Positions 13,205-53,559 of a stretch of DNA of 64,000 nucleotides are shown one piece after another. The notes under the pieces are model-generated. The model made no database searches and was not told where the DNA came from. It was given only the letters and a program-made list of their open reading frames with translations. Within the stretch, counting starts at the first letter, position 1; every line of letters starts with the position of its first letter. Source of the stretch: Candidatus Elulimicrobium sp. (GTDB lineage Bacteria > Patescibacteriota > Minisyncoccia > Phycocordibacterales > UBA918); NCBI GenBank assembly GCA_020720815.1, contig DYNY01000002.1:5980-69979 (forward strand), read 5' to 3'. The position numbers and the translations under genes were made by a program.

Positions 13205-13232
13205 AAAATAGGGCCGAAGCCCTATTTTTAAA
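13205..13232 (-). terminator. Intrinsic terminator just downstream of the dnaA stop
   Basis: aaaaatagggccgaagccctattttta forms a hairpin with flanking A/T runs. Confidence 0.6.
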
Positions 13233-13234
13233 CT

Positions 13235-14620
13235 CTATTTAAGGAGAATACGAATCTGAGATATTTCCTCTTCTAGCTCAGTATTTAGTTTTAGTTCCGC
13301 TTTAATCTTTTCACAAGAGTGAATAACTGTGGTGTGATCTCTTCCTCCTAATTTTTTACCAATTGCTGGATAAGAAACTTGAAAATCTTCACGGAGTAAG
13401 TACATAATAATTTGTCGTGGTTTTACAATTTCTTTACGACGAGTTTTCTCATAAATACTACTTTGATCAATATCAAAGTAGTGTGCCACTTTATCCACTA
13501 CATCTGAAACTGCTAGAGTCTTACGTGGTCTGGAACTATTCTTAATTATTACCTTGACTTCATCTAGAGACAAAGTTCGACCTAGGAGTTGTGATTGACA
13601 CATAATAGTATTTAGAGCCCCTTCAAGTTCACGTATATTACCTTCAATGGTATAAGCTAAATGATTTACCACTTCGTCAGCTAGGGTAATACTGTTTTGA
13701 GCTGCTTTAGCACGTAAAATAGCGGCCCGAGATTCTAGGTCAGGAGCTGGAATATCAACAATCATACCTTGAGCAAAACGAGAACGGAGTCGATCTTCTA
13801 ATCCAGCTAGTAAAGCTGGGTGCATATCACTAGAAAAAACAATTTGTTTATTAGTATCATGTAAGGCATTAAAAAGATGAAAAAGTTCCTCTTGAGTTTT
13901 TTCTTTAGTAGCTAAGAATTGCACATCGTCCATGATAAGTACGTCATACTGGCGATATTTATCTTTAAATGTATTAGCTGAACCACTTTGGAGGGAGTTA
14001 AAATAATCTACAGCAAAGCGTTCACTAGTGACATAAAATACCTTCTTACCAGTTTTTTTAATCTGATTACCAACCGCTTGAATTAGATGTGTTTTACCGT
14101 GACCGGTTTTGCCATAAATAAAGAGAGGGTTATAAGCAATACCAGGCTTTTCACTAACCGTTTTGGCTGCAGCATGAGCCAAAGCATTATAAGGCCCAAT
14201 AACAAAGGTTTCAAAAGAATATTTAGGATTTAGGTTATCACTTTTATTAATATAATATTCCTCTAAAGGTAAAGCAGCGTTAACGGTTTGGGTCTTACTA
14301 CTCTCCCCGCGACGATCACTTCTTTGTACAACATCATACTCAATACTGCGCACATAAGGAGTTAGTTCACGTAAAGTTTTAAGGATCATTGACTGAAATT
14401 TGTCTTGAAGCCAATCTTTAACAAATACGCTCGGTACGGCTAAGGTAGCCGTACCGTCTTCTAGTGAGAGAATGTAAGTATCTCGAAACCAAGTTTTAAA
14501 GTTGGCTGGAGTAATAGCCAGTTCAATTTTTACTAAAGCATCATCCCAAAGCTTTTTAATATCAATATGTTCAGTCCGTACGATACTAGAGGCAGATGAA
14601 GGATGTGTAATTGGATTCAT
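13235..14620 (-). CDS. dnaA: Chromosomal replication initiator DnaA
   Basis: 461 aa with AAA+ Walker A GKTGHGKTHL and the C-terminal DnaA signature (KKLGGRDHTTVIHS). Confidence 0.95.
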   Translation of the reverse strand: MNPITHPSSASSIVRTEHIDIKKLWDDALVKIELAITPANFKTWFRDTYILSLEDGTATLAVPSVFVKDWLQDKFQSMILKTLRELTPYVRSIEYDVVQRSDRRGESSKTQTVNAALPLEEYYINKSDNLNPKYSFETFVIGPYNALAHAAAKTVSEKPGIAYNPLFIYGKTGHGKTHLIQAVGNQIKKTGKKVFYVTSERFAVDYFNSLQSGSANTFKDKYRQYDVLIMDDVQFLATKEKTQEELFHLFNALHDTNKQIVFSSDMHPALLAGLEDRLRSRFAQGMIVDIPAPDLESRAAILRAKAAQNSITLADEVVNHLAYTIEGNIRELEGALNTIMCQSQLLGRTLSLDEVKVIIKNSSRPRKTLAVSDVVDKVAHYFDIDQSSIYEKTRRKEIVKPRQIIMYLLREDFQVSYPAIGKKLGGRDHTTVIHSCEKIKAELKLNTELEEEISQIRILLK

Positions 14621-14806
14621 ATCAAGATAAATAATCTAAACAGTAATGAGCATTATACCTGCATTAAGGCGACTGTAAAATATTTTGGTTTCGATTAGGA
14701 AATAACAAATCATTTTGAGTCTTTAAAAGTGCAACTGTGTATAACCGGTGTATAAATTAAGACAAACCATTCCCCTTTTGTCGACTATTGAATTATTTAG
14801 GAGTTC
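14621..14806. promoter_or_regulatory. dnaA upstream region carrying two more DnaA-box-like repeats
   Basis: TGTGTATAA at 14737-14745 and GGTGTATAA at 14747-14755 in tandem, the same 9-mer as in the dnaA-dnaN spacer. Confidence 0.55.
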
Positions 14807-14845
14807 ATGTATAGTGTGTCGGTATTTCAAATACTAAATATTTCT

Positions 14846-14995
14846 ATGAGTAAAAGAACCTACCAACCAAGTAAGAAAAAAAGAGCTACAACCCATGGTT
14901 TTCTAGTACGAAGTGAAACTACTTCTGGGGCCAAGGTGCTACGAGAACGTCGTCGAAAGGGGCGTGCCCAACTAACCGTAAAAAAAGCTCGTTAA
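14846..14995 (+). CDS. rpmH: 50S ribosomal protein L34
   Basis: [22 protein letters not shown]...[11 protein letters not shown] is the canonical L34. The track start at 14807 adds a non-conserved extension. Confidence 0.9.
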
Positions 14996-15007
14996 GAGCT
15001 TTTTTTA
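14982..15007 (+). terminator. Hairpin overlapping the rpmH stop, a likely attenuator between rpmH and rnpA
   Basis: aaaaaagctc-gttaa-gagctttttt. Equivalent rpmH-rnpA attenuators are known in other bacteria. Confidence 0.5.
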
Positions 15008-15008
15008 T

Positions 15009-15359
15009 TTGTTATACTTACATCTAATGCTTAAGAAACAGCAACGATTACCCCGATTTCAATTTAGAGAAGTTTTTGCGGAGGGAAAGAGAATCCAAGG
15101 CTTAAACACTACCTTAATTGTTAGTAAAGATACAACATTTAAATGTTCTGTTGTAGTGAGTAAAAAAGTGGCTAAAAAAGCTCATGATAGAAATCGGATT
15201 AGGCGCCGACTCTATACTTTGGTTGGGGAATTAATTTCTCTAAGACCGCTAGCTTTAGCTTTAATAATAGTTGTAAAACCAGTTATTATGAAGTTAAATA
15301 AAAGCGATTTCAGAGAAATACTGAAGGTTGAGATTGGACGTGGCTTTAATAACAGGTAG
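15009..15359 (+). CDS. rnpA: RNase P protein component
   Basis: The KKAHDRNRIRRRL motif is present. The start is probably MLKKQQR at 15027. Confidence 0.85.
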   Translation: MLYLHLMLKKQQRLPRFQFREVFAEGKRIQGLNTTLIVSKDTTFKCSVVVSKKVAKKAHDRNRIRRRLYTLVGELISLRPLALALIIVVKPVIMKLNKSDFREILKVEIGRGFNNR

Positions 15360-15369
15360 AATAGCACTT

Positions 15370-16098
15370 ATGTTTATTTATATTTGGCATACATTTTTTT
15401 TTGACCCCGTTTATAACGGGCTGATCTTTTTTATTGATGTAATACCCCGGGGTGACGTTGGATTAGCAATTATAGCTATAGTGATTTTAGTTAAAACTAT
15501 TCTTCTCCCCCTTTCTATCAAGGCCGTTAAAACGCAAAAGATAATGCGTGAAATTGAACCAAAGTTAAAAGAATTAAAAGAGAAATACAAAGACAATCGA
15601 GAAGAACAAGCTAGGGCTATGATGTCTATCTATAAAGAAGCAGGGATGAACCCGTTCGTCAGTATTGTCCTAATGTTTATACAAATTCCCATTATTATTT
15701 CCCTTTACTACTCGGTTTATAGTGGCGGTGGAATTGCTCTGCCTGATATAAATAACGAACTCCTATACTCTTTTGTGGCTAGCCCAGTGACAGTTAGTAT
15801 GAATTTTCTTGGTCATATTGATATTGCTGCTAAAAGCGTCTGGTTGGCTCTACTGGCTTCTGGAACGCAGTTTTTCCAGATAAAACTATCTATGCCAGCT
15901 ATAGAACCTAGAGATCCTTCTACTCCAGGAAATATGAAAGAAGATTTTATGAGAAATCTACAACTACAAATGCGTTATGGTATGCCAGTACTCATATTCT
16001 TTGCCGCTTACTTTATTTCCGCTGCGATTGCACTTTATTTCTTTGTCAGTAATGCGGTAGCAATTTTACAGGAGTTTTACGTTAGACGACACCGCTAA
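15370..16098 (+). CDS. yidC: Membrane protein insertase YidC/Oxa1, short form
   Basis: Multi-TM protein following rnpA (classical rpmH-rnpA-yidC order). The start is taken at MFIYIW, after the rnpA stop. Confidence 0.85.
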   Translation: MFIYIWHTFFFDPVYNGLIFFIDVIPRGDVGLAIIAIVILVKTILLPLSIKAVKTQKIMREIEPKLKELKEKYKDNREEQARAMMSIYKEAGMNPFVSIVLMFIQIPIIISLYYSVYSGGGIALPDINNELLYSFVASPVTVSMNFLGHIDIAAKSVWLALLASGTQFFQIKLSMPAIEPRDPSTPGNMKEDFMRNLQLQMRYGMPVLIFFAAYFISAAIALYFFVSNAVAILQEFYVRRHR

Positions 16099-17042
16099 GG
16101 AACAGGCACCGAGACACAAACCAAGTAACCTGGGTAATCTAATTTTATCACCTGTTTAACATTTAAATTAGTAGCTCTAGCAAACTGATGACAGGTATCT
16201 GCAAAAGTTGAAAGGTTGGCAGCATCAATCCAGTTTATGGAAAACGCAGGTACTTGATTAGTACCATCTAAGTAATCAACAGCTAGAAATACACCATAAG
16301 GTGAATCTGGTGAATTTTTAAGAGTGGAGTCGTGGGCTACAGCAAGGGCTTTTAATTTTACTGGGTCGGTAATCATATGTGGTCGGTGGGCAATTTGGTA
16401 ACGGTTAATAATTTTAGGTAAATTAAAAGCTGAGGCTGGTTTAAAAATGGCCTCCAACTCAACAGTTAAGCCGTTTGGTAGTGGATCATAACAAACTTCC
16501 TTATTACCTAGGAAAGAATTGGTTTCATACACATAGCCATTTGAAGTATCACAACCGGCCTTGAAGTTAGGGTCGGTAGGGATTATTGGTCTATAGGTAT
16601 AACCCACACCATGTATGGGTGCCACAGCAGGGACATTGACAACGTTTCCAACAACCGGTTCCGGAAGGGTTATTGGATTCGTAAATATTTCTGTCTCGGC
16701 TAGTTGCGGATTAATGATGGTCAGTACCAAAACCGCTGAAATAACTACCACCAAGCCAAGTAAAGAGCCTCTAATATCACCAATCGCTTCTTGTTTACTA
16801 GTTACTACATCAGACAGCATATACTTAACACCGGCAATAATTATTTTAATGACAGCCATTAGAGCCGCGATAGCAATTGATAGGCCATAAAGAGCATTAA
16901 TATAATCACCAAAACCACTATTAGCTTGAATTCCAGGAATACTGACAAGTGATTTATAGACAAGGGGTTCAGCTGCAAAAGCCAAGATTGGTAGGAGACA
17001 AAAGACAAAGAGTGAAATAAGAATAAAAGATTTAGAGTTCAT
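16095..17042 (-). CDS. Secreted protein with an N-terminal VirB2/TrbC-like pilin topology fused to a roughly 190-aa C-terminal domain
   Basis: Signal peptide (MNSKSFILISLFVFCLLPILAFA), then two hydrophobic helices separated by a charged loop (ALYGLSIAIAALMAVIKIIIAG ... GSLLGLVVVISAVLVLTII), then a Cys-containing soluble domain. The start is taken at the internal Met to avoid overlap with the upstream gene. Confidence 0.5.
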   Translation of the reverse strand: MNSKSFILISLFVFCLLPILAFAAEPLVYKSLVSIPGIQANSGFGDYINALYGLSIAIAALMAVIKIIIAGVKYMLSDVVTSKQEAIGDIRGSLLGLVVVISAVLVLTIINPQLAETEIFTNPITLPEPVVGNVVNVPAVAPIHGVGYTYRPIIPTDPNFKAGCDTSNGYVYETNSFLGNKEVCYDPLPNGLTVELEAIFKPASAFNLPKIINRYQIAHRPHMITDPVKLKALAVAHDSTLKNSPDSPYGVFLAVDYLDGTNQVPAFSINWIDAANLSTFADTCHQFARATNLNVKQVIKLDYPGYLVCVSVPVP

Positions 17043-18213
17043 ACATCCAAAGCGTGTTATCATTTTTGTTAATGAAGTAAAGAGCTTTTTCGCTTTCACC
17101 GATTGCCATATTAATAATATCTAGCTCTCGACCGCCACTTTCACTAAAAGTGTCTACGAGCGGACTAGCTTGTGCCGCCAATAAATCTACTCGCCAAATA
17201 GTATCTTTAAAAGAAATTTTTCCGCGGTACCAGTTGTCAGGGAACTCAACTGGCATAGTATTGCCTTCAACAGCGCACCAAACAAAATCATTGTCCTTTT
17301 GGCTGGCGGAACATTTATCTGGCACAATGATGACTGGACTTTCTACTCGGCTATCACTGGATTTGTTGTATAGATAACTGTAAGGAATAAGATTTTGAAT
17401 TTTAGTGTAAGCAATATGGGTCGGTGTATTGAATGTAATCAGCCCAAAGCCAGCTACCGGAACGCGAGACATAGCTCCTTTACTAAACTTATAGGTGTAG
17501 CCTTCTAGAAGATAAGTCGGTTTGGTATACACGTAGTGATTATCAGTACTACTAGTTCCCCACTGCATCGTCGCTTCATAAAATGGTACGGTAAACAGTT
17601 CGTTTTCTGTATTATTATTTAGATTATAAACACTATTAAGTAAACCAGATGAAGTGGCGGTCACAAAAACTAATTCAGATGAGTTGATGATTTTAAAGTC
17701 ACTCACTGGTTTATCTAATGAGTAAAATTCATAGCCACCTCCAGAGCTCAAATTGCCAATAGTTAACTCCCCAGTGCGGCGATCGTTTCCAAGCCGCACC
17801 GCTACTGTCTTACCATCCTTTGAGAAAGAGGCCATACTAGCCTCTTTTAGGGTGGTATTGGACAAACGTACCTCTTCTTCAGTCGTAAAAGGATTTATGG
17901 TGTAAATATTACCGTTACCAGCCTCGGCGTAGTAAACCAAAATAGGCGTAGAGGTAGAGGCTGGGGCTTCAGTAAAACCAATTACTGGCTTAGTGGTAAG
18001 TTGACGTAGTCTTGGTCGGTCGACATTTACTACTGGCTCGGGAACTGGTGGTGGCGGTATAACCTCCCCACCATTTTCCTGACCTGCTTGTCCAAATGGG
18101 TTCCAGATTTCACTGGGGTTTTTAGGTGTGCCGAAAAATATTAGATAGAGCCAAACTGCCAAGAGTAAAAAAATGATAAGAGTAGCAATTACGACGTAGG
18201 TTTTTTGTGACAT
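17032..18213 (-). CDS. Membrane-anchored protein with a Pro-rich linker and TolB-like beta-propeller repeats
   Basis: N-terminal TM (VVIATLIIFLLLAVWLYLIFF), then PPPPVPEPVV, then repeated DGKTVAV and NGNIYTIN-type blades. Confidence 0.6.
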   Translation of the reverse strand: MSQKTYVVIATLIIFLLLAVWLYLIFFGTPKNPSEIWNPFGQAGQENGGEVIPPPPVPEPVVNVDRPRLRQLTTKPVIGFTEAPASTSTPILVYYAEAGNGNIYTINPFTTEEEVRLSNTTLKEASMASFSKDGKTVAVRLGNDRRTGELTIGNLSSGGGYEFYSLDKPVSDFKIINSSELVFVTATSSGLLNSVYNLNNNTENELFTVPFYEATMQWGTSSTDNHYVYTKPTYLLEGYTYKFSKGAMSRVPVAGFGLITFNTPTHIAYTKIQNLIPYSYLYNKSSDSRVESPVIIVPDKCSASQKDNDFVWCAVEGNTMPVEFPDNWYRGKISFKDTIWRVDLLAAQASPLVDTFSESGGRELDIINMAIGESEKALYFINKNDNTLWMYEL

Positions 18214-18217
18214 AAAA

Positions 18218-19240
18218 TTAATAACTTACTCTAAAACCTCCTTGCACTCCTTGTAATAATTGAACGGTATTGCGGACATGAAAATCAACATTAGTCTTGC
18301 CACTGAAACCTCCTTCAGTAGCCAAGGTCACCTCGTAGGGGTTGTTAACATTATTGACACTCGTCACGCCATTAATAGACCATTCTAAGAGATCAGGATT
18401 ATTAAAAGTTTTTATATCTAGATAGTAAGGTTCCGCTCGTAAAGTAATACTATTTCCTAGTAGTAGGACTTCTTTATCAACAGCTTTTTGTTTTAAGCCG
18501 TAAAAACCGGTAGATTCATAAAAAGATAAGTTTGGGTAAACTTTAATTAGGTCAAAGATTCGTCGGGCGATTGGTTCACCAGAATCTTTTCTAATATCTA
18601 GGTTAATAGTGGCGTATTTACCTTGGGGCATAGTAAAAGTAATTACGTTACGTCCACGAATTGATCCACCTTCGAGTACCTTTCCATTAAGTTTCCAAGT
18701 ATAGAGAAGGCTGGCTGGCGGAATAGCATTACCATTAACAATAGCGGTTAGGTTAACGATACTTTCGATTGAAGGTAAAGGGCGACCTTTATAAAAGGCT
18801 GGTACTCGGGTCTGAGGTTCAATGATAACATCAAGAAAAACTGGGGCCACCAGTCTTTCGGTCGAAAGACTGCCACCACCAGGATAATCGATAACCAGTT
18901 TAATTTTGGTTAATTCACCTACTTTACCAGAGGTAAGTTTAATGGTGCGTTGATTGATGGCTGAGCTCAACAATTCATCATTAATAAACCAACGCATACC
19001 CGAACCTTGAATTGGTAAACCATAGTCATTAGCAGTAGCTGTAAATTCTGATTCTGGTTCAGGAAAAAATGGGTCAAGGTTAATTTCTAGTTGGGTTTGA
19101 CCATAATCAAGGTTGGGTGAAGACTGAGCATTAATCACTAAAAAAGGTGTGAGTAACAGAACCAAAAATAGTAGTACGTATTTCATATCGCTTATAAATA
19201 CATTGTAACAAAGTTTTTTTTCAAAAAAGCGACTATTCAC
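18218..19240 (-). CDS. Secreted hypothetical protein in the T4SS-like operon
   Basis: Signal peptide (MKYVLLFLVLLLTPFLVINAQ) from an internal Met, then a beta-rich domain. It is tightly packed within the operon. Confidence 0.6.
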   Translation of the reverse strand: MNSRFFEKKLCYNVFISDMKYVLLFLVLLLTPFLVINAQSSPNLDYGQTQLEINLDPFFPEPESEFTATANDYGLPIQGSGMRWFINDELLSSAINQRTIKLTSGKVGELTKIKLVIDYPGGGSLSTERLVAPVFLDVIIEPQTRVPAFYKGRPLPSIESIVNLTAIVNGNAIPPASLLYTWKLNGKVLEGGSIRGRNVITFTMPQGKYATINLDIRKDSGEPIARRIFDLIKVYPNLSFYESTGFYGLKQKAVDKEVLLLGNSITLRAEPYYLDIKTFNNPDLLEWSINGVTSVNNVNNPYEVTLATEGGFSGKTNVDFHVRNTVQLLQGVQGGFRVSY

Positions 19241-19243
19241 TGC

Positions 19244-20116
19244 TTATTTGGGATGGTACCAGACGGCTGCCATCCATAACAGTACAAAAGGAAATATGTT
19301 AAGCATGGGTGTACTGTAACCGATAATAGACAGTAGTAACATACCAGTTTTTAACCCGCTTCCCCGACCAGTGGTAGGCCTAAGGCCGGCTGCGATGTAC
19401 TGAAAGTAGACAGTTAATATAGAAAGTAGTCCTAGAGCTAATATTAAGGCATATAAACCAGCTGCGATGGAAAAGGCTATTTCGGCGAAGTCGACACCAA
19501 TAAATTTAGCTACTTCATTTACGAGCGAAACAGCCTTGGCTGCTATCCATTTTAACACCCCACCCTCACTTTTGGTTATAGCATCTAAGCCGGCCACAAT
19601 ACCAAAGCTCAAAATTGATAAAATGGCCAATGGTAGTTGTACAAAAATCCAACTATATGTAATCCACGAAGCATTTCTAATAGTGACACTACTAGCGGTC
19701 ATTTTTGCTTTAATGTCAACACCGACGTTATGGTTGATTTTTGGGAGTTGTTTTTTTTGTCTAGAGCTTGAACTTACTTGCGTCCTGGCGCTAGCTTGGG
19801 CATTGCTAATAGCTTGATTAGTCTGGGCTTCGGGTAAACTTTTTTCCTTATCTAGTTTGTCAGTCTTAGCTGAATTACTGCCTAGCCCAAGCGGTCCAAG
19901 CATCTTCTCTCTAAAGGCTTGGTAAGCATAATCTTCATCTATGGTGGATCGGGAAAATCGACCAGTATTGTTGTCTTGTGGAGATACAGGCCCTCGTTGT
20001 TGCCCACCTTCCCAATCGGGGTTTATACCAGACTTACCACTGTAAGGTTTTGCACTTCTGTCCTGACCAGGAATTGGTTTTGGTTTAATTTTATGGTTAT
20101 CATCAAGTAGCGCCAT
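19244..20116 (-). CDS. Membrane protein with a roughly 150-aa disordered N-terminal tail and 3-4 C-terminal TM helices
   Basis: Low-complexity Q/S/K-rich N-terminus and hydrophobic C-terminal segments. Confidence 0.6.
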   Translation of the reverse strand: MALLDDNHKIKPKPIPGQDRSAKPYSGKSGINPDWEGGQQRGPVSPQDNNTGRFSRSTIDEDYAYQAFREKMLGPLGLGSNSAKTDKLDKEKSLPEAQTNQAISNAQASARTQVSSSSRQKKQLPKINHNVGVDIKAKMTASSVTIRNASWITYSWIFVQLPLAILSILSFGIVAGLDAITKSEGGVLKWIAAKAVSLVNEVAKFIGVDFAEIAFSIAAGLYALILALGLLSILTVYFQYIAAGLRPTTGRGSGLKTGMLLLSIIGYSTPMLNIFPFVLLWMAAVWYHPK

Positions 20117-20131
20117 AATAGTACCAGTATA

Positions 20132-21928
20132 CTATGCGCGAGAAGCTTTTAGTTCATCCCGGGAACGTTTTATCTGGAGAAGTTGTGAAGGATCGGAAGT
20201 AATAATCTGATCTTCGGTATATGAGGCAATAACTTTAATCGCAACATGTTTAAGGCCGACGAAGAAGATACCTTCCCCTACTCCTGATTCAAGTAAAAGA
20301 AACTTTTCTTGGTCAGTTAGGTTAAAAGTTTTTTGGATATTGTCAATCGCGGTTGGTGATTGTTTCATCAAAAACTGGATAGAAGAGTTGGTAATCATTG
20401 GTACACCATAAGGCGAACGTAAGAAGTCGTCGACGTCTTGAGTAATGGTAGCAATGCCAAGATAGTACTTACGACCACGCTTGGCTAAGCTAAATAAGAA
20501 GGAGGCTGTGTCTTCAGACTTCATCATCCACCAAGCTTCATCTATCACCAATAGACGCTTTGCTAGGCGACGGCGAACTGATCCCCAAATAAAGTTGGTG
20601 ATAATGTACATGGCGATGGTCTTGAGTTCGTCTTCCATATCGCGCAAAGAGAAAACCACGAACTTTTGGTTAATGTCGACATTAGTAGGTTTATTCATAA
20701 AGCCTGACCAGGTACCAGAGGTATATTTTTGTAATCTGGTAAGGAGCGAGTTGCTACCGTCCATACCAGCTAATACCATTTCAAAGTCGGTTAGTAACGG
20801 TGGTTCTTGGTTGCTGAAGTCTGCGTCACCGGTAATATCCTTAAGAGCATAGGTTTCTTGAATAGCAAGATCTAATACAGTCTCTTCTTCGGGGGTAAGT
20901 CCGCCCATCATAAGGCGGAAGAGACCGATGAGTTCAATAATATGCGTGCGTAAAATATCACTCGGACTTTCGTCAGCTCCTGGTGGTGGTAAGTCAAAGG
21001 GATTGATATGATGATCGGAAGAGAGAGAAATGTTAAAGAATCGCCCACCGGTGGCTTCGGCCAAATACTCGTACTCTTTTTCAGGATCAAGCACAATAAC
21101 TTCTGAACCAAACATTAAGGAGCGGAGAATTTCTAGTTTTAAGCCATATGACTTACCAGCACCAGAAGTAGCAAATGTCACTGAGTTGTAGTTGGTGAGA
21201 GAGAAGCGATCAAATAGTACTAGTGAAGAGTTATGGCGGTTAACTCCATAGAGAATACCGGTATCTGAAGTTAAATCAAAAGATGTAAATGGAAAAAAGC
21301 TCGATAATGGAGCAGAGTTAAACTTGCTGTGCACCAATAATTCATCGGTAGCCATCGGGAGGACACTCTTAATACCCTGTTCTTGTTGGAAAAGCGCTGG
21401 TTTTATGTACACGAGTTTTGAATCGAGCATCCCTTTAATGTTATTTTCAGCCTTATTTAATTCAGCTTCATCCTTGCCATAGATAGTAATGTATAGCCCA
21501 ACATCAAAAAGCTTTTCTTCGGCTTGTTGGAGTTTATCACGTAACTCTTCTAGGTTACGGAAAGCCGCTTCTAGTTGGGGGTCACGCACTTCCCCACGTT
21601 CGGCCTTGATGTTAATTTGACTCTGTACCTCGGCCACTTTTTTTTGGAATTTTTTTAGGGTATCGGCTGTGTCTATCGGGTGAACATAAATTGCTACATC
21701 AAGTTCTTTCTCAATACTTAAAATTGGCTCTAGCCAGCCTTCAGTTAGGTAGCGAGGATAGGCTACAGCATAAAGTACTCGGGCTTGTATCCCACTGATA
21801 TTTAAACTACGAGGAGTAAATTGAATAGCTGATGGCGCAACAACGTCGATAAGGGTCATTAGTTCATCACTAATTTTATCGCCTCTTGGTGTGCTGGTTT
21901 GTGGTTTTAAGAAATCAAAAAGTCCCAT
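20132..21928 (-). CDS. VirB4/TrbE/CagE-family type IV secretion ATPase
   Basis: Walker A ATSGAGKSYGLK, Walker B LLVIDEAWWMM (the DEAW signature), and the motif LAKRGRKYYLGIATITQ. Confidence 0.85.
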   Translation of the reverse strand: MGLFDFLKPQTSTPRGDKISDELMTLIDVVAPSAIQFTPRSLNISGIQARVLYAVAYPRYLTEGWLEPILSIEKELDVAIYVHPIDTADTLKKFQKKVAEVQSQINIKAERGEVRDPQLEAAFRNLEELRDKLQQAEEKLFDVGLYITIYGKDEAELNKAENNIKGMLDSKLVYIKPALFQQEQGIKSVLPMATDELLVHSKFNSAPLSSFFPFTSFDLTSDTGILYGVNRHNSSLVLFDRFSLTNYNSVTFATSGAGKSYGLKLEILRSLMFGSEVIVLDPEKEYEYLAEATGGRFFNISLSSDHHINPFDLPPPGADESPSDILRTHIIELIGLFRLMMGGLTPEEETVLDLAIQETYALKDITGDADFSNQEPPLLTDFEMVLAGMDGSNSLLTRLQKYTSGTWSGFMNKPTNVDINQKFVVFSLRDMEDELKTIAMYIITNFIWGSVRRRLAKRLLVIDEAWWMMKSEDTASFLFSLAKRGRKYYLGIATITQDVDDFLRSPYGVPMITNSSIQFLMKQSPTAIDNIQKTFNLTDQEKFLLLESGVGEGIFFVGLKHVAIKVIASYTEDQIITSDPSQLLQIKRSRDELKASRA

Positions 21929-21931
21929 ATA

Positions 21932-22579
21932 CTATGCGTTTTTAGACGGTGCCGAGCCGGTAGGGTCAGCTGGATTATAGATGTGATAAAATAGCTCAAC
22001 TAAGTCGTCAGTCTTTAGTGGTACAGTCCTTACTCCTACTCCACCAAGTCCATCTTGTACTAGTGCTAAACGTTGATCTAGTTGAATCCGGTGTTCTTCA
22101 AATTGTTGTTCACCAGGTAGGTTGGTTTTTCGTGGACTACCCATAAACATAGAAGTGATACCTTTGGTAATGTTAATTGGGGCTGGAGAATATGGCACTA
22201 CCACATAGAAGTTTTTTTGCATAATATCAACTTCGGTGGTAAAGGTGCGAATAAAATCAATATATTCTCGTAGCTGAATCCGCATGAGGTCGTTATCTTG
22301 GTTGGCCTCACGTGTACCTAGGAGTGCTAGGTAAGGGTCAATATTAAGTCGACGAGATTGTACATAGATCTGTAAAGAAAAATCTAGGGTGTTTAAAAAA
22401 GTTTGAAACTGTTGGAGAATAGCTTGTTGTTCATCGGTTGATTTGAGAGCAAAGTTGACTGATGAAGCTAGTAGGATTGAGCACATCTGGCCGTTCTTAA
22501 GTAAGACCACCCCGTCACGGATGTCTTTAATGGTTACAAAATCTTGGGTAGTAGCTGATGTTTTTGGCATATTATTCAA
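21932..22579 (-). CDS. Cytoplasmic hypothetical protein, possibly a split-off VirB4 N-terminal domain
   Basis: 215 aa sitting immediately upstream of the 598-aa VirB4-like ATPase. The combined length (about 813 aa) equals a canonical VirB4. Confidence 0.5.
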   Translation of the reverse strand: MNNMPKTSATTQDFVTIKDIRDGVVLLKNGQMCSILLASSVNFALKSTDEQQAILQQFQTFLNTLDFSLQIYVQSRRLNIDPYLALLGTREANQDNDLMRIQLREYIDFIRTFTTEVDIMQKNFYVVVPYSPAPINITKGITSMFMGSPRKTNLPGEQQFEEHRIQLDQRLALVQDGLGGVGVRTVPLKTDDLVELFYHIYNPADPTGSAPSKNA

Positions 22580-22988
22580 TTTTCTGCATCGCTTCTAACT
22601 CTAGGCGTCGTGCGAGCGAGATTGGTGGTGATTTAGGAACCACCACACTACTGTTAGTCGGCTTTTCCTCGGTAGAATTTGGCGTGAAAGAATACTTGTA
22701 AGTCTTTTGTTCTTTTTGACGCCAAAGATAGAGTTTAGTTCCTTGAAAATAGTTAATAATTGCTTCGAGGAAAAATGAGAAGGGGCGATTATTAACCGGA
22801 TAAAAAGCTAGTGCTCCGGCCAAAATAGCTAAGGGTAAACCAACTAAAATAAAGATAATAATATTAGCGGTAAAGAAAAGTACCACCCCCATCCCCACTC
22901 CGCCACCTAGATATAAAAATTGTCGCCAGGTTAGAGGGCCAAATATTTTATCCTCAATATCAATAAACTGTGGAACTTCAAATCTCAT
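22572..22988 (-). CDS. Small two-TM protein, VirB3-like by position and topology
   Basis: 138 aa with two adjacent hydrophobic helices (GVVLFFTANIIIFILVGLPLAILAGALAFY). It is encoded just upstream of the VirB4 genes, as in many T4SS loci. Confidence 0.45.
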   Translation of the reverse strand: MRFEVPQFIDIEDKIFGPLTWRQFLYLGGGVGMGVVLFFTANIIIFILVGLPLAILAGALAFYPVNNRPFSFFLEAIINYFQGTKLYLWRQKEQKTYKYSFTPNSTEEKPTNSSVVVPKSPPISLARRLELEAMQKIE

Positions 22989-23066
22989 GTCTTCTATTAT
23001 ACATGTCTAAGTACCAATGAGACACCGCTAGTTCTGTGTCTATCCACAATTAACTTGGATAATTTT

Positions 23067-23594
23067 TTATTCGGTTTCCCAGCGTGGGGTGCTAGAAGAT
23101 GGCGGTGGCGGCGGTATGCGAGTAGTCAAAGTGGCTTTAGCTTCAGTTAAGATAGCTGATTGAGTGGTGGTATAGACGTTTTCTGTGGGATGAGGAATGG
23201 GTTTAGGAATAGCCTTCAAGACCGCTTCAGCTTCAAGGATTTCAGATTCCAATAGATTGGTACTTGGTGACAAAAATGTTTCACTATAAATTTCCTCGTA
23301 GGCGCTTACTATTGGTAGCGGTAAGGCTTGAATAAAGCCTTCGACTAGTAATTCACCATCACTCCTAGGTATACCACATTCCTCTTCGGCAAAGATTATA
23401 AATTCTGGTCGATCAAAGAAGAAAGTCATTAGTAAGACAAAACCATTTTCTAAAACAACAGATTGTTCATCATTTAAATTACTCGTGTCAACAAAGACAC
23501 CACATATCTCTTCAAAATAATCACTAAGGACAAAGTCTCGGTAGGTGGGGTCAAGCGACAGTAGTCTTTGTTCGATGGTTTGTTGTGGTGTCAT
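23067..23594 (-). CDS. Hypothetical cytoplasmic protein with a Pro-rich C-terminus
   Basis: 175 aa with operon context and no recognisable motif. Confidence 0.5.
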   Translation of the reverse strand: MTPQQTIEQRLLSLDPTYRDFVLSDYFEEICGVFVDTSNLNDEQSVVLENGFVLLMTFFFDRPEFIIFAEEECGIPRSDGELLVEGFIQALPLPIVSAYEEIYSETFLSPSTNLLESEILEAEAVLKAIPKPIPHPTENVYTTTQSAILTEAKATLTTRIPPPPPSSSTPRWETE

Positions 23595-23609
23595 ATTAAT
23601 TATTTGAAG

Positions 23610-25721
23610 CTAGGCCGCTGGTGCTGGTTTTGCTTCAGCAGATTTTTCTTTTTCATCTTTAAGACTCTTTTGTAGCTCTTTTAACAGTTTATCTCTGTTA
23701 AGATTGTCTTTGGCATTTGTCTCTGTCTTCAAGATGTTGGCTTGTGCTTTTTGACCATACTCGCCATAGTAATTTTTCATGTGGTCGGCTACGTCTTTAT
23801 TTCTCCGACCAAAAGAGTGATTATTTCTTATGATTGGAACTTTATTCCAGGTATCAGCCCTACCTTGGATAGTTTTTGCATAGGCTATTTGATTGGCGTA
23901 TATCGTGGCAGATTCAGCCTTGGTTTTTAGACTATCCATTACACCTTTCAATACCGTCTGTGAAGTAGCAAAATTTTTCTGAGCGGTCGCGACATCATTT
24001 TTCAAATCAGCTAAGCCACTTGTTTCTTCTATCTTGTCTAATTCGGCTTTGGTCGTATTTAGTTTCTTTTCTATCTCATCACTTTGATCTTTGGTTTGAT
24101 ACTTCTTGGCGTCTTTTAGTTCCGCTTCAAGTTTAGCAATCTCTGCCTCCTTAGCTGACTTCTCCGTCGCTATTTCTGCTTCTTTGGTTGCTACCGCGGC
24201 GGTAGTTGAAGCTACCGCGGCGGTATTAGTGGTATGAGTACCATCGGCTTTATGTAGTTCACTACCTACCTTGGTCTTCTCTTCGTCCACTAAGTTTTTT
24301 GTATTTTCTTCTAAGGCTTTCTTTCCTGCCTCACTTTTTATATCAATTTTATCTAAGCTATTATTAAACTTAATTTCACGCTCTCGTCTTTTCTTATCGG
24401 CTTCCTCTTTGCGCGCCAAATAGCCTTTATCGTTACCACCACCCAGGCCGAAAGCCTTACCGACTCCACCAATATTACGAACATCATAAGAACTATTGGC
24501 GACACCTTTAGTTGTTTTCAGCAAGGCCTTACCTGTCCTGCTCTCGGCAGCCCATTTATTGAAGGATGGGTTATTGGCGAGCCTATTTCCTGCCCGACCA
24601 GCCAGTTGCCGACCGGCAAAGGCGGCGGTACCGGCCGTTGCACCACCGGCAGCTCGCTTGCCGTACGACTTGGCCTTACCAACCATCTTATTACCAATCG
24701 ACATAACCGCCCCGCTACCATTAGCACCCATCTTTTGCGCGACAACAACGGCCGCAATAAGAAAGACGGCGGTAAGGATAAAAGGTGGAAAAACCTGAAT
24801 AAAGGAGGCCGGAGCTTCTTTTGTCCACATAGCACTAAGTGACTTTGGCCCGCCACCGGTAATAGAAAAATTTGCTAACACTTTAGCTGAAAAGTAGATC
24901 ATTAGAATATAAGCCGGGGCGACAAAACAACGACTCAAAAAACCACTCCAATATTCAGTGGAGTACTTGGACATTGAGGGGAAAACCCAACCAATAAACA
25001 TAATTGGTGACAGTACCATGTAGATGTTTAGTACCACAAAACGAATAATTAGCAAAAACGACCCGGCAAAAAACACAAAGGCTGTTATGATATATAAGAA
25101 CATCGTGCCAAAAATATAGCCAAAAGATCCTCCCCCTCTTAATTTTTCAAAATCTGCCCCAGACTTGCTAGAGAAGTCCAAGACACTGGTTAGACCCATA
25201 AGACGCATAAATTCACCAGAAATACTAACAGCACCATCGGCATCTTTTGGAAACGAATTTACTAGTTGTACCGTGGAGATGTTAGAAAAATCAACCACAA
25301 ACTTTGTGATAAAGAGACTAAAATTTACTAAGAGAGCGGCCAGGATAATTGAAATTAGCATTTTTTTGGTATTACTGTCACTGCCGAAAATCATCCGTAG
25401 GCCAATAAAGACTAAGCCAAAGATAAAGGTTAGATTGAAAATGTCCCGCACCGTTACCCAAAGTGTATCGATGGTTAGGCCGAGTCCACTCTCTGCAAAG
25501 AGCTTGCCAAAACCAATCACCATATGGTTAATTGTGTAGTCCAGAAACATTCCACTAATCCAGACCAACCAGCCAAACAGTAAGTTGACCAACGTCCATA
25601 GAAATTCTTCCAATAGGTTAGCGTAAGTTATGTGCGGAACAAAAACCACCAGTAATAGTAAACCAAGCACCGCTACCAAGGCGCTTTTTTGGTTTAATCT
25701 CTTACTAAAACTCTTAAACAT
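23610..25721 (-). CDS. Polytopic membrane protein with a long C-terminal coiled coil, VirB6/TrbL-like
   Basis: 703 aa with at least six TM helices in the first ~400 aa, then a Gly/Ala-rich linker and a K/E-rich coiled coil (EAEIAKLEAELKDAKK). Confidence 0.55.
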   Translation of the reverse strand: MFKSFSKRLNQKSALVAVLGLLLLVVFVPHITYANLLEEFLWTLVNLLFGWLVWISGMFLDYTINHMVIGFGKLFAESGLGLTIDTLWVTVRDIFNLTFIFGLVFIGLRMIFGSDSNTKKMLISIILAALLVNFSLFITKFVVDFSNISTVQLVNSFPKDADGAVSISGEFMRLMGLTSVLDFSSKSGADFEKLRGGGSFGYIFGTMFLYIITAFVFFAGSFLLIIRFVVLNIYMVLSPIMFIGWVFPSMSKYSTEYWSGFLSRCFVAPAYILMIYFSAKVLANFSITGGGPKSLSAMWTKEAPASFIQVFPPFILTAVFLIAAVVVAQKMGANGSGAVMSIGNKMVGKAKSYGKRAAGGATAGTAAFAGRQLAGRAGNRLANNPSFNKWAAESRTGKALLKTTKGVANSSYDVRNIGGVGKAFGLGGGNDKGYLARKEEADKKRREREIKFNNSLDKIDIKSEAGKKALEENTKNLVDEEKTKVGSELHKADGTHTTNTAAVASTTAAVATKEAEIATEKSAKEAEIAKLEAELKDAKKYQTKDQSDEIEKKLNTTKAELDKIEETSGLADLKNDVATAQKNFATSQTVLKGVMDSLKTKAESATIYANQIAYAKTIQGRADTWNKVPIIRNNHSFGRRNKDVADHMKNYYGEYGQKAQANILKTETNAKDNLNRDKLLKELQKSLKDEKEKSAEAKPAPAA

Positions 25722-25739
25722 AACCTAATGCTAAGCCAA

Positions 25740-27224
25740 TTAGTCTTTCAAGAAATTTTTCCAAATTATTTCTTTTCCATTTACTTCTGGCTCTGAGTGC
25801 AAGTCACGATTGTTGGTAAATTCGTTAGTTAGCTCTTGTAAGGTGGTAGGGTTTACACCATCGACCATCATGTCATCAAATCGTAGTAAGATACCATTTA
25901 AGGATTTTAAGAATATAGGTTCTGGATCTGCTGGGTCTCCGATATTGGAAATAATGATAGGCCGAGTCTCATCCATCTCATTGAGAATTTCTTGTGCCTC
26001 AGTCCTTCGTTCCAGACTATTGTTGATGATATCTAGTATAAAGGCTTCAAATAATGGATGGTAATTATTAATCAAAGCCAAATAGTCATTTTCCACAATA
26101 ATTGCGTCTTCGATTAACTCTCTAAAGACCGCTGGACTAAGTGATGAATCAGCTTCGGCCACTTGGGTAGTGTAGGCTTGTCCATTGTAGACGTAGCCTG
26201 AACCCCCTGATAATCCTAGTAAACCAGCCGCTCCGGTAAAGGCTTTCTGGGTGATTTGTGCAAATAAGGCACTAACCAACTCATTTATTTCGTCGGCAGA
26301 AATGAGTGACTGTGGTCCGGTAGAGGTTTGAAAAGTAAGAGCTTCATTTATTACTTTACCAGGAGTAGTGATAGTGCAGTTTTTGCGCGGAGAATCGGCT
26401 CCTTCCACAACTTCACAGAGTTTACTAGAGAGGAAGCCTGAACCGTAATCTAAAAGCTTGAATTCCTCACCTCGAGCATTGGTGATGCGAGCACTTGCCT
26501 CAGATTGGGCTGATAGTATTCCACCGAGAGGAGTCAAAGCCTTCGGGTTTTGGGTAATAGCAAAGAAACTGTCCCAACCGCCGTTTTCGACAAAAGTAGC
26601 TGTTCCTTCAATAAACTTATCGACATTTTCGATCGCACCGCTTAAGGTGCAGGCGGTTGATTTACCAGGCGCTTCTCCATTCATGCGTTGGTAGTCGTAT
26701 GATATCGCTAAAGCTAGACGCACATCAAGCTTAAAAGGGGCGCAGATAAAAGAGAAGGCACCACCAAGTTCTTCCAAATATTGACCAAACTGCTCGTCTG
26801 CTATCTGCGTGACAAACCCTTTGAAATCAGTGATAAAAGCCGGGCTACCTTCAAAGCCTGAATTTACCCAATTAACCATACTAGAGGTCATCTGCGAAAG
26901 AATATTTTTTGCTAATGACCAAGCTATACCGTCTAAGACGTTTTCAAGCACAAAGGATGAACTAGTCATTGCTGCGGTAACACCATCTAGACTGACAGAG
27001 GCTGTGGTAGCCGCATTGACACCAAGAAGTTGAAACATATTCAATATCTGGGTTGCTTCACTAGATCCGCCCGCCATTGGTCCACCGGCTTCAACCTTAT
27101 CTATTTTATTAAAATCGTGTGGTATATAAAGACTAACTAAGCCAAAACAAAAAACAAAAATAAATATTAGAAATCGTTCGATTATTTGGTGTATTTTTAT
27201 CATATTAGAGTTGTTACTGAACAT
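25740..27224 (-). CDS. N-terminally anchored, exported hypothetical protein in the T4SS-like operon
   Basis: TM helix (FLIFIFVFCFGLVSLYI), then a roughly 450-aa soluble domain. The start is probably the internal Met at 27203. Confidence 0.6.
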   Translation of the reverse strand: MFSNNSNMIKIHQIIERFLIFIFVFCFGLVSLYIPHDFNKIDKVEAGGPMAGGSSEATQILNMFQLLGVNAATTASVSLDGVTAAMTSSSFVLENVLDGIAWSLAKNILSQMTSSMVNWVNSGFEGSPAFITDFKGFVTQIADEQFGQYLEELGGAFSFICAPFKLDVRLALAISYDYQRMNGEAPGKSTACTLSGAIENVDKFIEGTATFVENGGWDSFFAITQNPKALTPLGGILSAQSEASARITNARGEEFKLLDYGSGFLSSKLCEVVEGADSPRKNCTITTPGKVINEALTFQTSTGPQSLISADEINELVSALFAQITQKAFTGAAGLLGLSGGSGYVYNGQAYTTQVAEADSSLSPAVFRELIEDAIIVENDYLALINNYHPLFEAFILDIINNSLERRTEAQEILNEMDETRPIIISNIGDPADPEPIFLKSLNGILLRFDDMMVDGVNPTTLQELTNEFTNNRDLHSEPEVNGKEIIWKNFLKD

Positions 27225-28116
27225 TTTGGCTAAAATTGGTTAGTAAGATGGCCGAATCATTCATACCAAAAACTTTTGCATGAGGAACTAAAGCATCATA
27301 TATATTGGTTAAAGCCAAACCCAAACCCTTAATATCGTCTTCGTAACGTTTTATTCTTATATAAGGAACCATCGGGTCGGAAATGGCTTCGCTCATGCTT
27401 TTAATATTTTCATACATAGCGTTATAAACATTTATTAAGTCCAAGTGTTGTTTGATGAATTCTCTCGGTACAGCAATAGAAGCTGTCGAATCCCGATAGT
27501 CCTTATAGACTTGGGCTAACCGCTTTAGGTCAGAATCGTCTCTTGTGTCCTCCGGTGAAGCAAGATAGTCACGTAGTAAGAGCATTTCGTTGTCCAAATC
27601 TTTTTGACTTTTGGTAAGCAGAATATCGGCAATGGCATTACCGTAATTACGAATATCCTTATCTTGGCTTTGATTGGAAATTATTATGTCTTTTACGTCA
27701 TAAATTTTGTCTTCGGTAGCCACATCACCTAGTCTTTCAACCGCTTCTTGCAATAGCAACTCTTTTGGTTTAGCGATTGGTCCAGCCGCTTTAGTGGCTA
27801 ATAAGTTTTCAAGAAGTGTAACACCAAGTTGCCCGGTTAAAGTCTTAGGCGTTTCATAAGCCGAAGCGTCAGTCGTGGTTAGTGTCACGGCTGGAGTGGT
27901 AACAAATTGGTCACGCCAATCCTCAACCCCATCGATATCATTGTCAGTTGTAGGAATAAAAACCCGCATCGGGGCTTCGTCTGCCTTAGCGGATTCTATT
28001 TTTGTTAAAGATGAGGTGCGTGGTTCACCAAAATTACTAACTACATAAGCTCCAGCCACGATAGCAAAACCAATCATGAAAGAACCAACTACTTTTGGGT
28101 TTCGAAAGTATTCCAT
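27214..28116 (-). CDS. N-terminally anchored, exported hypothetical protein, first gene of the T4SS-like operon
   Basis: TM helix (VVGSFMIGFAIVAGAYVV) and an acidic soluble domain. The upstream region (28117-28174) is AT-rich, promoter-like. Confidence 0.6.
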   Translation of the reverse strand: MEYFRNPKVVGSFMIGFAIVAGAYVVSNFGEPRTSSLTKIESAKADEAPMRVFIPTTDNDIDGVEDWRDQFVTTPAVTLTTTDASAYETPKTLTGQLGVTLLENLLATKAAGPIAKPKELLLQEAVERLGDVATEDKIYDVKDIIISNQSQDKDIRNYGNAIADILLTKSQKDLDNEMLLLRDYLASPEDTRDDSDLKRLAQVYKDYRDSTASIAVPREFIKQHLDLINVYNAMYENIKSMSEAISDPMVPYIRIKRYEDDIKGLGLALTNIYDALVPHAKVFGMNDSAILLTNFSQNVQ

Positions 28117-28174
28117 AAATATAGTATAGCAGTCATCAGCCTACAAAATGACTAGTTATGTATACATCTGTGAA

Positions 28175-29086
28175 CTACTTGATTTGATTTGTCATACTAA
28201 CTGGTACTCCTTTTAATGCTTTAGCTAAAGCCAACCAAGTCTCTAAGTCTAAGTCCTCTCCGCGGACAGTTAGTGATAGTTTAAGCTTGGTAAAAATAGT
28301 AGTAATATCAGTTCGTTTAAATTCATGACCTAGATTATGAATTAGTTGTTTGCGTTTTTTACCAAGTCCAAGGTGTAGTAAATAAAAGAAAAAATCAGCT
28401 TTAAGATCAGTAAAATTATTTTGATTTATGTTCAAAATGGCCAAAATGGCTGAGTCGACATTGGGTTGAGGGTGAAAATGACCCCTGACCACAGTTCTTA
28501 CATAGTTTGGTTCGCCAAAAGCTCGCACCGAAAGGGATAGCAAAGATTCCTTTTTTGCTCGAGCGATTCTGGAAACTAATTCTTTTTGCATTAAAAAAAC
28601 TAGAGTATTTGGCTGGATGGGACTTTCTAAAAATTGTCTAAGTAATAAGCCTGAAAGATAATAAGGAATATTAGCCACCACCTTAAATTGTTTATTTTTA
28701 AGACCCAAGGTAGTGGGAGTGATATAACGTGCATCACCATGAATGAGTTTTAGTTTGCCAACCTTGATTTCTAGGGCGAAGGCCTCTTTTAGGTGAGGCA
28801 ATACCCTTTCATCAGCTTCAATCGCCAGCACACTTACTCCCCTTTTTAGGAGCGCACCAGTCAAACGTCCGGTACCAGGCCCAATTTCTAGTACAGTTTC
28901 TCCGGCCTCTAACCTACCGGCATCACAAAGCCACTCAGGGACAACATTACTGGTAAGGAAATTTTGCCCAAGGGATTTTTTGTGCTTGAAAGTAGGTCTT
29001 TCGGCTGGATTTGAGTTTGTTTTGTCCTCTTTCATACTGCGAGCATACAAAGAGCCAGTAAAAATAGCAATAGTTAAGTAAAACAA
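28175..29086 (-). CDS. rsmA: 16S rRNA (adenine1518/1519-N6)-dimethyltransferase RsmA/KsgA
   Basis: LGQNFL motif, SAM site EIGPGTGRLT, and NIPY motif. The true start is likely MKEDKT near 29035. Confidence 0.9.
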   Translation of the reverse strand: MFYLTIAIFTGSLYARSMKEDKTNSNPAERPTFKHKKSLGQNFLTSNVVPEWLCDAGRLEAGETVLEIGPGTGRLTGALLKRGVSVLAIEADERVLPHLKEAFALEIKVGKLKLIHGDARYITPTTLGLKNKQFKVVANIPYYLSGLLLRQFLESPIQPNTLVFLMQKELVSRIARAKKESLLSLSVRAFGEPNYVRTVVRGHFHPQPNVDSAILAILNINQNNFTDLKADFFFYLLHLGLGKKRKQLIHNLGHEFKRTDITTIFTKLKLSLTVRGEDLDLETWLALAKALKGVPVSMTNQIK

Positions 29087-29198
29087 AGAGTGGCGCAGCC
29101 ACGACTATGTTTTACTTATGCAGGCGCTTAGCTGAGCCGCGACCCCACAGGGAGCGGGCAGCTAAGTTATATGTCCGGTCACTACATTCCTTTGTTTA

Positions 29199-53452: not shown

Positions 53453-53559
53453 GTTTAGCTCCTAGTTAGCCTATGTTTTAAAACCGATGTCTAAGCTTAG
53501 AAGTTGTTTATATGTCAAAATCGAACAGTTGACGTAGTATATAATATACGAATCTTTCT

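Follow-up and report, generated by a model that had tools for sequence, protein, structure and literature searches.

What does a type IV secretion system (T4SS) do for a bacterium that carries it among housekeeping genes beside the replication origin (oriC), with neither a relaxase nor a coupling protein encoded nearby? We address this question for a 64,000-nt stretch of Candidatus Elulimicrobium sp. (contig DYNY01000002.1 of assembly GCA_020720815.1, positions 5,980 to 69,979; hereafter the window), in which calling of open reading frames (ORFs) finds eleven tightly packed minus-strand genes, numbered g1 to g11 in the order of transcription, that fill positions 16095-28116 between rsmA and yidC, with rnpA, dnaA and dnaN adjoining the region. 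This layout agrees with a first reading made from the letters alone (the original prediction), which had described the same eleven co-directional genes as a T4SS-like operon convergent with yidC. The organism is a Paceibacteria-type ultra-small bacterium, and the locus is almost certainly a Patescibacteria T4SS.

The ATPase g7 is, judged by its profile matches and motifs, a genuine VirB4. Its linker and C-terminal motor domain match the NCBIfam conju_CD1110 VirB4 model with 352 bits (cutoff 325) over profile positions 178-733 of 752, followed by the models for the Mbov_0397-type VirB4 of integrative and conjugative elements (ICEs), TraC-F and VirB4_CagE, and the VirB4-type Pfam domain P-loop_TraG scores 87.6 bits compared to 25.6 bits for the HerA-type DUF87. 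The protein carries a Walker A motif (ATSGAGKS), a Walker B motif (LLVIDEAW) and an IATITQ motif, and at E ≤ 1e-3 its solved relatives are the Thermoanaerobacter VirB4 (4ag5, E 2.9e-39) and TrwK only. We rejected an FtsK, HerA or type IV coupling protein (T4CP) identity, since the top families are all of the VirB4/TraC type and the PDB matches are VirB4 only. The original prediction had recognised a VirB4 in the Walker A, DEAW and TQ motifs and had set FtsK/HerA or TraG against it as the alternative; the CD1110 score, the other VirB4 families and the VirB4 structure 4ag5 all bear out the VirB4 call. Thousands of close homologues of g7 exist, and among the top 120 listed matches (83-100% identical) the named sources are Patescibacteria, Paceibacterota/Paceibacteria, Parcubacteria, Nomurabacteria or Kaiserbacteria; the exact sequence is also present in freshwater metagenome assemblies.

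The N-terminal part of VirB4 is found in the neighbouring gene g6, which the original prediction had left unrecognised and which matches the NCBIfam TrsD/TraD family (E 4.6e-7). In the CD1110 VirB4 profile g6 matches positions 3-118 and g7 positions 178-733, and in the Mbov_0397 VirB4 profile the two match positions 98-233 and 286-893, respectively. Because g6 matches exactly those N-terminal profile segments that are absent from g7, VirB4 is made here of two polypeptides. A TraC-like family (PF26593) is precomputed on the product at the g6 position of a metagenome contig with an identical VirB4. For comparison we fetched 80 species-representative loci (L003-L082), picked by VirB4 similarity, of which 43 have full 10-kb flanks. 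A separate g6 ORF, mostly of 206-222 aa, was detected in all 80, and the split is therefore ancient and not the product of a frameshift.

The other core parts, which the original prediction had proposed as VirB6/TrbL-like with a coiled-coil tail, VirB3-like and VirB2/TrbC-like, were each met by a family match. The large polytopic product g3 aligns with nearly the full Pfam TrbL profile (PF04610, positions 5-210 of 215, E 1.2e-4) at 22.3 bits, below the cutoff of 25.9, and its 703-aa counterpart in this position on the identical-VirB4 contig carries a precomputed PF19590 (TrbL_3) match. Residues 1-330 hold about 7-8 predicted transmembrane (TM) segments; the tail after them, approximately 370 aa rich in Lys, Glu and Ala, looks like a coiled coil. 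The region coding for this charged tail also holds a 15-nt unit, GCTACCGCGGCGGTA, in 2 exact copies 21 nt apart (24190-24225), which encode a short repeated Thr/Ala-rich peptide. The small membrane protein g5 matches Pfam PrgI (PF12666) with 43.9 bits (gathering score 27) and is expected to be the membrane anchor of VirB4.

The pilin is g11, in which a signal peptide and a two-TM hairpin (residues ~20-130) precede a Cys-containing C-terminal domain of about 200 aa. Its own match to Pfam T4SS_pilin (PF18895, residues 65-129) lies just below the cutoff (23.1 versus 26.6 bits), and a search of PDB sequences returned TM matches at chance level only; among its orthologues, 36 of 41 match PF18895 (best 2.4e-10), 2 of 41 match TrbC/VirB2 and 23 of 41 match NCBIfam NF045849, the Mbov_0395 family of pilin-like proteins from Mycoplasma ICEs (best E 4.9e-10). 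Orthologue length varies from 169 to 556 aa; the pilin domain can be aligned between species and the C-terminal part cannot. No other ORF in the 64 kb has a pilin domain. Across 82 loci searched with hidden Markov models, 71 have a pilin hit, with one pilin in 64 of them and two in 7. That g11 matches the Mbov_0395 family and g7 the adjacent Mbov_0397 family hints at a pilin-like gene already present in the monoderm ancestor and not borrowed from diderms. We did not accept the NF045849 matches as proof of a pilin ancestral to monoderm T4SSs, and the idea stays a lead only, because a recent review describes the corresponding ICE proteins as VirB3-like (PMC12857230).

All eleven operon genes are intact ORFs (Table 1). 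With longest-ORF starts, the junctions from g1 to g11 measure -11, 18, 15, 78, -8, 3, 15, 3, 4 and -68 nt. The same eleven genes were called on the independently assembled metagenome contig with the identical VirB4, whose starts give an 11-nt overlap between g10 and g11. The stop of g11 lies 4 nt inside the convergent yidC.

Table 1. Positions of the operon products, the upstream spacer and other features of the window.
Feature	Position	Strand	Basis or size
g1, bitopic protein with acidic ectodomain, 300 aa	27214..28116	-	ORF, TM prediction
g2, membrane-anchored, mostly helical extracytoplasmic protein, 494 aa (487 by gene call)	25740..27224	-	
g3, extended VirB6/TrbL-like polytopic protein	23610..25721	-	Pfam, TM prediction
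g4, acidic soluble protein, 175 aa	23067..23594	-	no TM, Pro-rich C-terminus
g5, PrgI/VirB3-like small membrane protein	22572..22988	-	Pfam PrgI
g6, TrsD-like protein, detached VirB4 N-terminal domain, 215 aa	21932..22579	-	NCBIfam
g7, VirB4 ATPase, linker and C-terminal motor domain, 598 aa	20132..21928	-	NCBIfam, Pfam, motifs, PDB
g8, 290 aa	19244..20116	-	TM prediction
g9, secreted protein with signal peptide and three tandem ~100-aa repeats	18218..19240	-	orthologue profile
g10, bitopic protein with 7-bladed beta-propeller ectodomain	17032..18213	-	AlphaFold
g11, VirB2/TrbC-type T4SS pilin domain with variable C-terminal domain	16095..17099	-	Pfam, orthologues
Spacer between rsmA and g1, possible operon promoter	28117..28174	-	58 nt
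yidC	15328-16098	+	
rsmA	28175-29086	-	
PcrA-type helicase	29199-31169	-	
M23 peptidase with two LysM domains	31520-32548	+	
ComM/YifB	32621-34132	-	
ORF of 563 aa	34516-36207	-	
Tyrosine recombinase	39551-40489		
PilB/GspE-type type IV pilus ATPase	3387-5192	+	
Low-GC stretch	53500-57000		

Five of the accessory operon products are exported or membrane-anchored, and no DNA-processing or coupling functions are encoded nearby. In g10, an N-terminal TM helix and a Pro-rich, low-confidence linker (~residues 30-65) lead into an all-beta part from residue 69. Its AlphaFold model (predicted local distance difference test score, pLDDT, 90.2; predicted template modelling score 0.79) drew 779 PDB matches at E ≤ 1e-3 in a fold search, the top ones being 7-bladed WD40-type propellers. 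By sequence TolB matches g10 only weakly (E 0.2-0.6), and of the 'TolB-like beta-propeller' proposed originally the propeller holds and the TolB label gives way to a generic 7-bladed WD40-type fold. For g9, a profile of 38 orthologues resolves three repeats, each with a conserved W-x-x-N-G motif and with invariant tryptophans at W84, W182 and W287. The repeats appear by profile comparison to be immunoglobulin (Ig)-like, with matches to the Ig-like domain of phage T4 Hoc (E 4.4e-4) and to an LPXTG surface protein (E 0.022) and a weak match to Pfam BiPBP_C. Self-alignment of the single sequence did not support three repeats (z 0.6-1.9), and the repeat claim therefore rests on the orthologue profile.

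Four further products carry no assignment. The bitopic g1 has one TM-like segment (residues 9-27) and no Pfam or NCBIfam family, and its 36-orthologue profile matches nothing among PDB sequences. In g2 several cysteines are invariant (C161, C192, C270 and C283); in its AlphaFold model the conserved central part reaches a pLDDT of 67 and confidence is confined to a helical bundle at the C-terminus, and we considered a fold assignment unjustified given the poor central model. The acidic g4 (29 Asp and Glu versus 9 Lys and Arg) and g8 each lack a Pfam or NCBIfam family and a PDB match. In g8 a polytopic domain of 3-4 TM segments follows an N-terminal region of about 140 aa that is probably disordered. 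Relatives usually hold an ORF of 150-250 aa in the VirB6-PrgI interval, the slot of g4, and in most loci the ORF directly after VirB4, the slot of g8, is a multi-TM protein of 110-380 aa. The earlier view that most components are unassignable thus narrows to g1, g2, g4 and g8, since six products are now assigned and a seventh is Ig-like.

Whether such a locus is a mobile element or a fixed part of the chromosome is answered by its relatives. The order [uvrD-rsmA]-T4SS-yidC-[rnpA]-dnaA-dnaN, with all orientations, is kept in 43 of the 43 full-flank loci, rnpA being detected in 26 of them. Searches with tblastn found g5, g6 and g7 in all 43, g3 and g10 in 42, g9 in 41 and g2 in 40, followed by the pilin g11 in 32, g1 in 27 (always at the same position), g8 in 8 and g4 in 2; g4 and g8 are rarely found because they evolve too fast. 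VirB4 has a median identity of 70% across the 80 species loci. In a comparison whose loci had been selected for VirB4 similarity, its identity was higher than that of PcrA, YidC, DnaN, RsmA and RnpA in all paired genomes, and in 42 of 60 it was also higher than that of DnaA. The synteny and the VirB4 conservation together argue for a locus passed on vertically and kept under strong purifying selection, and against a mobile one. We also note, as an observation in its own right, that a VirB4 more conserved than most nearby core genes is unusual among secretion-system genes.

It is very improbable that the operon is instead a decaying or domesticated ICE that came to lie next to oriC by chance. 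The VirB4 of g7 is nearest to the VirB4 families of Firmicutes and Mollicutes ICEs, and a tyrosine recombinase does lie inside the window. It is, however, the only one there, scores about 250 bits to the XerA/XerD/XerC models and sits 11 kb from the operon with core genes between. Family scans (Pfam and NCBIfam) of ORFs of at least 110 aa, which cover the large ORFs across the 64 kb and leave out a few small or overlapping ones, revealed no relaxase, T4CP or MOB domain, and no att-like direct repeat was found bracketing the operon. The GC content of the operon (~0.39-0.45) equals that of the flanking core genes. With the same genes at the same site between the same core genes in every one of the 43 species-level relatives, with VirB4 among the best-conserved genes of the region and with eleven of eleven ORFs intact, the ICE reading was rejected on the strength of the 43/43 synteny. 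The original prediction is sustained in its description of a chromosomal, non-ICE locus between core genes beside oriC and in the absence of a relaxase and T4CP, a statement that for the T4CP extends to these 64 kb only; its statement that neither integrase nor att repeats are present is right for the repeats and has to be amended for the Xer-type recombinase. A 563-aa ORF between PNPase and the DksA-like gene was considered as a T4CP and rejected: it has no Pfam family and no P-loop. Its long N-terminal half is of low complexity, a single TM segment and a globular C-terminal part complete it, and the whole resembles a disordered membrane protein.

Systems of this kind have been reported. A survey of 3,035 Patescibacteria genomes by Quinonero-Coronel and colleagues (2025, Microb Genom, PMC12102498) found a monophyletic Patescibacteria VirB4 clade nested in the MPF-FATA class, with genes for TrsD, PrgI/VirB3, VirB6 and a VirB2-like protein (PF18895) widespread near virB4, relaxases nearly absent, and a T4SS neighbourhood rich in dnaA, dnaN, rnpA, ksgA and rpmH in Paceibacteria and Microgenomatia. 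In Southlakia epibionticum (Saccharimonadia), the cluster SEML1_0004-0019 beside dnaA and dnaN is essential for epibiotic growth by transposon sequencing, includes essential pilins and has no recognisable coupling or relaxase proteins (Wang 2023, Cell, PMC10633639). A 2025 review places such systems in a new T4SS type, which in monoderms may assemble a pilus (PMC12857230). The original prediction was unaware that the dnaA/dnaN/rnpA/ksgA position, the lack of a relaxase and the TrsD, PrgI, VirB6 and VirB2-like genes had already been published. It had likened the locus to the systems essential in Saccharibacteria; an essential counterpart does exist in Southlakia, and the organism itself is of the Paceibacteria type and not one of the Saccharibacteria. 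The role that it had suggested, in secretion, adhesion or DNA uptake, is as conjectural for this locus as it is for the published systems.

In studied T4SSs, VirB4 serves in pilin extraction and pilus assembly. The locus encodes a complete VirB3/VirB4/VirB6 inner-membrane core with one VirB2-type pilin and a conserved extracytoplasmic set that consists of two bitopic proteins, the triple-Ig secreted protein and the propeller on its Pro-rich stalk. We propose that the system descends from monoderm conjugation machinery of the MPF-FATA class and that conjugation would no longer be its job. By analogy, VirB4 docked on VirB3 and VirB6 may pull the pilin out of the membrane and polymerise it into a filament or conduit at the surface, where the Ig-like protein and the propeller on its stalk may span or organise the surrounding cell wall, and the variable C-terminal domain of the pilin would be displayed outside and touch the host cell. 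Since no coupling protein or relaxase is encoded nearby, attachment to the host and exchange with it, not transfer of the cell's own DNA, is the most likely role, with import at least as likely as export. We hold a pilus or conduit for host interaction as the mechanism to be somewhat better than an even bet, and identity and mechanism taken together to be likely.

Several points weigh against this proposal. Sequence comparison recognised neither a VirB8-like (NTF2) nor a VirB1-like protein in the operon, nor a cell-wall hydrolase, the nearest candidate being an M23-LysM peptidase outside it, and g1, g2, g4 and g8 remain to be placed in any scheme. With a C-terminal domain of 200 aa attached, the pilin might be unable to polymerise. 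Sequence does not decide between transport inward (DNA, nucleotides or other macromolecules) and transport outward (effectors). Most Patescibacteria genomes have VirD4/T4CP homologues, usually far from virB4 (PMC12102498), and a T4CP may thus lie elsewhere in this genome. Essentiality is known from one Saccharibacteria species only, which has different accessory genes (PMC10633639).

Uptake of host or environmental DNA for nucleotides and genes, by a T4SS working in reverse as in Helicobacter ComB or the archaeal Ced system, would also suit a window that, like ComB, has no T4CP or relaxase, and we consider it unlikely. The neighbourhood encodes ComM/YifB, PcrA and a PilB-like ATPase, g7 partly matches the model of the CedB DNA-import ATPase, and the 2025 survey leans towards the import of DNA or of other macromolecules (PMC12102498). 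The CedB match, however, reaches 40.8 bits where the cutoff is 700, over the P-loop core only; family scans of the window gave no CedA-like match, and the operon has no recognisable DNA-binding component. Moreover, deletion of comEC in Southlakia abolished competence and left the cells viable, whereas the T4SS is essential (PMC12857230, PMC12102498), and the essential role of that T4SS is therefore not ComEC-dependent transformation.

Translocation of effectors, that is, export of proteins or toxins into the host bacterium or onto its surface so that it releases nutrients, in the manner of Ptl, Brucella VirB or the bacteria-killing T4SS of Xanthomonas, strikes us as less probable still. Protein-secreting T4SSs that work independently of a T4CP do exist (PMC12102498; PMC12857230), Wang et al. 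offer protein export as one option (PMC10633639), and g4, as a small, acidic and fast-evolving cytoplasmic protein, could be a chaperone or a substrate; yet neither the operon nor its surroundings yielded a domain of the effector, toxin or immunity kind, and secretion of the Ptl type needs a periplasm and an outer-membrane complex, which are absent in a monoderm. A tentative further reading, which we would put forward with reserve, is that the conserved VirB3/4/6 motor drives an outer module specific to Paceibacteria, and different from that of Saccharibacteria, that is made of the pilin fusion, the wall-spanning propeller and the triple-Ig protein, and in which the C-terminal domain of the pilin may decorate the filament as a built-in host-recognition domain. 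If this is true, the pilin fusion would be the host-range determinant of these uncultured episymbionts.

The orientation of the operon relative to replication is conserved as well. Two signs locate oriC in the dnaA-dnaN region (~13019-14806): DnaA-box-like sites clustered at 13019-13114, with one more at 14736, and the minimum of the cumulative GC skew, near 11-13 kb. The operon, rsmA and uvrD are transcribed toward this predicted oriC, head-on to the replication fork (window positions 11842-28116), an orientation common to the 43 of 43 relatives and to Southlakia, where dnaA lies on the plus strand and SEML1_0004-0013 on the minus strand. This head-on orientation is not dealt with in the published 'gene dosage' argument. 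The conserved direction toward oriC may couple expression of the operon to replication.

Upstream of g1, the AT-rich promoter region proposed originally comes down to a 58-nt spacer below rsmA, which lies on the same strand; it may hold the operon promoter, but consensus scans show nothing above shuffled sequence. The spacer holds TGcTATACT, resembling an extended -10 element, which ends 6 nt before the ATG of g1, and it has no Shine-Dalgarno sequence; these features suggest a transcript that is leaderless or nearly so. When 15900-29300 was scanned for consensus promoters and terminators, sites were no more common than in shuffled sequence and TGcTATACT was not flagged, and transcript boundaries therefore cannot be called. 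The operon may be co-transcribed with the co-directional uvrD and rsmA.

Family scans identified yidC, rnpA, rpmH, dnaA and dnaN on the yidC side and rsmA, PcrA/UvrD, the M23-LysM peptidase, ComM/YifB, a DksA-like protein and PNPase on the rsmA side. The M23 peptidase lies just past uvrD in divergent orientation, and among the related loci with a 10-kb flank long enough to include it at least 11 keep this position; it is a candidate to stand in for the absent VirB1 hydrolase. The type IV pilus ATPase of the PilB/GspE type, ComM/YifB and the PcrA-type helicase, which is encoded directly upstream of rsmA and runs in the direction of rsmA and the operon, are no farther than 17 kb from the T4SS. 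Farther away, the low-GC stretch (0.32-0.36) carries tRNA-Gly, tRNA-Pro, a helix-turn-helix protein, a UPF0102/NERD-like nuclease and a protein-kinase-like ORF, and may be a small island unrelated to the T4SS.

The T4SS of Patescibacteria is the first reported to be essential to its bearer, and it is among the few molecular handles on ultra-small episymbionts. The locus described here is a clean, syntenic example from Paceibacteria with a gene-by-gene parts list (a split VirB4, a single pilin fusion, a propeller and an Ig-like protein) that is useful for modelling and tagging where genetics is absent; it adds no new kind of system. The propeller and the triple-Ig protein as conserved members of the Paceibacteria cluster may perhaps go slightly beyond the published papers, as may the single pilin fusion, the lack of a wall hydrolase in the operon and its transcription toward oriC.

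Among known systems, Helicobacter ComB (DNA uptake), Bordetella Ptl and Brucella VirB resemble the locus in being chromosomal, dedicated and T4CP-less, but they are diderm machines with a VirB7/9/10 outer-membrane core that is absent from the window, and a shared substrate is unsupported. Another comparison is with the monoderm MPF-FATA systems. A separate TrsD precedes VirB4 as in pGO1 (compare TrsC-TrsD-TrsE of pGO1/pSK41), the best VirB4 models are CD1110 and Mbov_0397, and the pilin domain resembles the small membrane protein Mbov_0395; CDS15-16-17 of the Mycoplasma ICE is grouped with this comparison class. The PrgH-PrgI-PrgJ genes of pCF10 have the order VirB6-VirB3-VirB4, as does the operon. 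Unlike these systems, the window has no relaxase, T4CP, VirB1-type hydrolase, VirB8-like proteins or PrgB-type adhesin; it does have a VirB2-type pilin, and its locus is fixed in the chromosome and is not a mobile element.

With Southlakia the locus shares the core order of VirB6, PrgI, TrsD-like protein and VirB4, the position directly beside dnaA/dnaN but on the other strand, exported Ig-like proteins encoded downstream of VirB4, pilins of PF18895 and a cluster free of relaxase and T4CP. Found only in the Southlakia cluster are a pair of giant VirB6-like proteins, an NTF2-like protein of the VirB8 kind, a lysozyme/cysteine-peptidase, a DD-peptidase protein and six short pilins in an array; a PEGA protein also belongs to its accessory set. 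The window encodes a single VirB6 and a single long pilin fusion together with a propeller; its operon is devoid of hydrolases, and a VirB8 is not recognisable. With its one pilin gene this lineage also departs from Saccharimonadia and Microgenomatia, which have pilin arrays. Searched by term, the 2025 survey (PMC12102498) makes no mention of a stalked 7-bladed propeller, a triple-Ig-repeat protein, a single pilin fused to a variable C-terminal domain, transcription toward oriC, or the absence of a cell-wall hydrolase from the operon with an M23-LysM peptidase as the nearest candidate. Compared with the Paceibacteria arrangement of that survey there is no essential difference: VirB4, TrsD, PrgI/VirB3, VirB6 and a PF18895/VirB2-like pilin near virB4 are common to both, as are the lack of a relaxase and of a nearby T4CP, the chromosomal position beside dnaA/dnaN/rnpA/ksgA and vertical inheritance within the class (PMC12102498). 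Since the components, the missing relaxase and the dnaA/dnaN/rnpA/ksgA neighbourhood all match the published Patescibacteria T4SS, the system is already known, and the locus is a rediscovery of that described kind.

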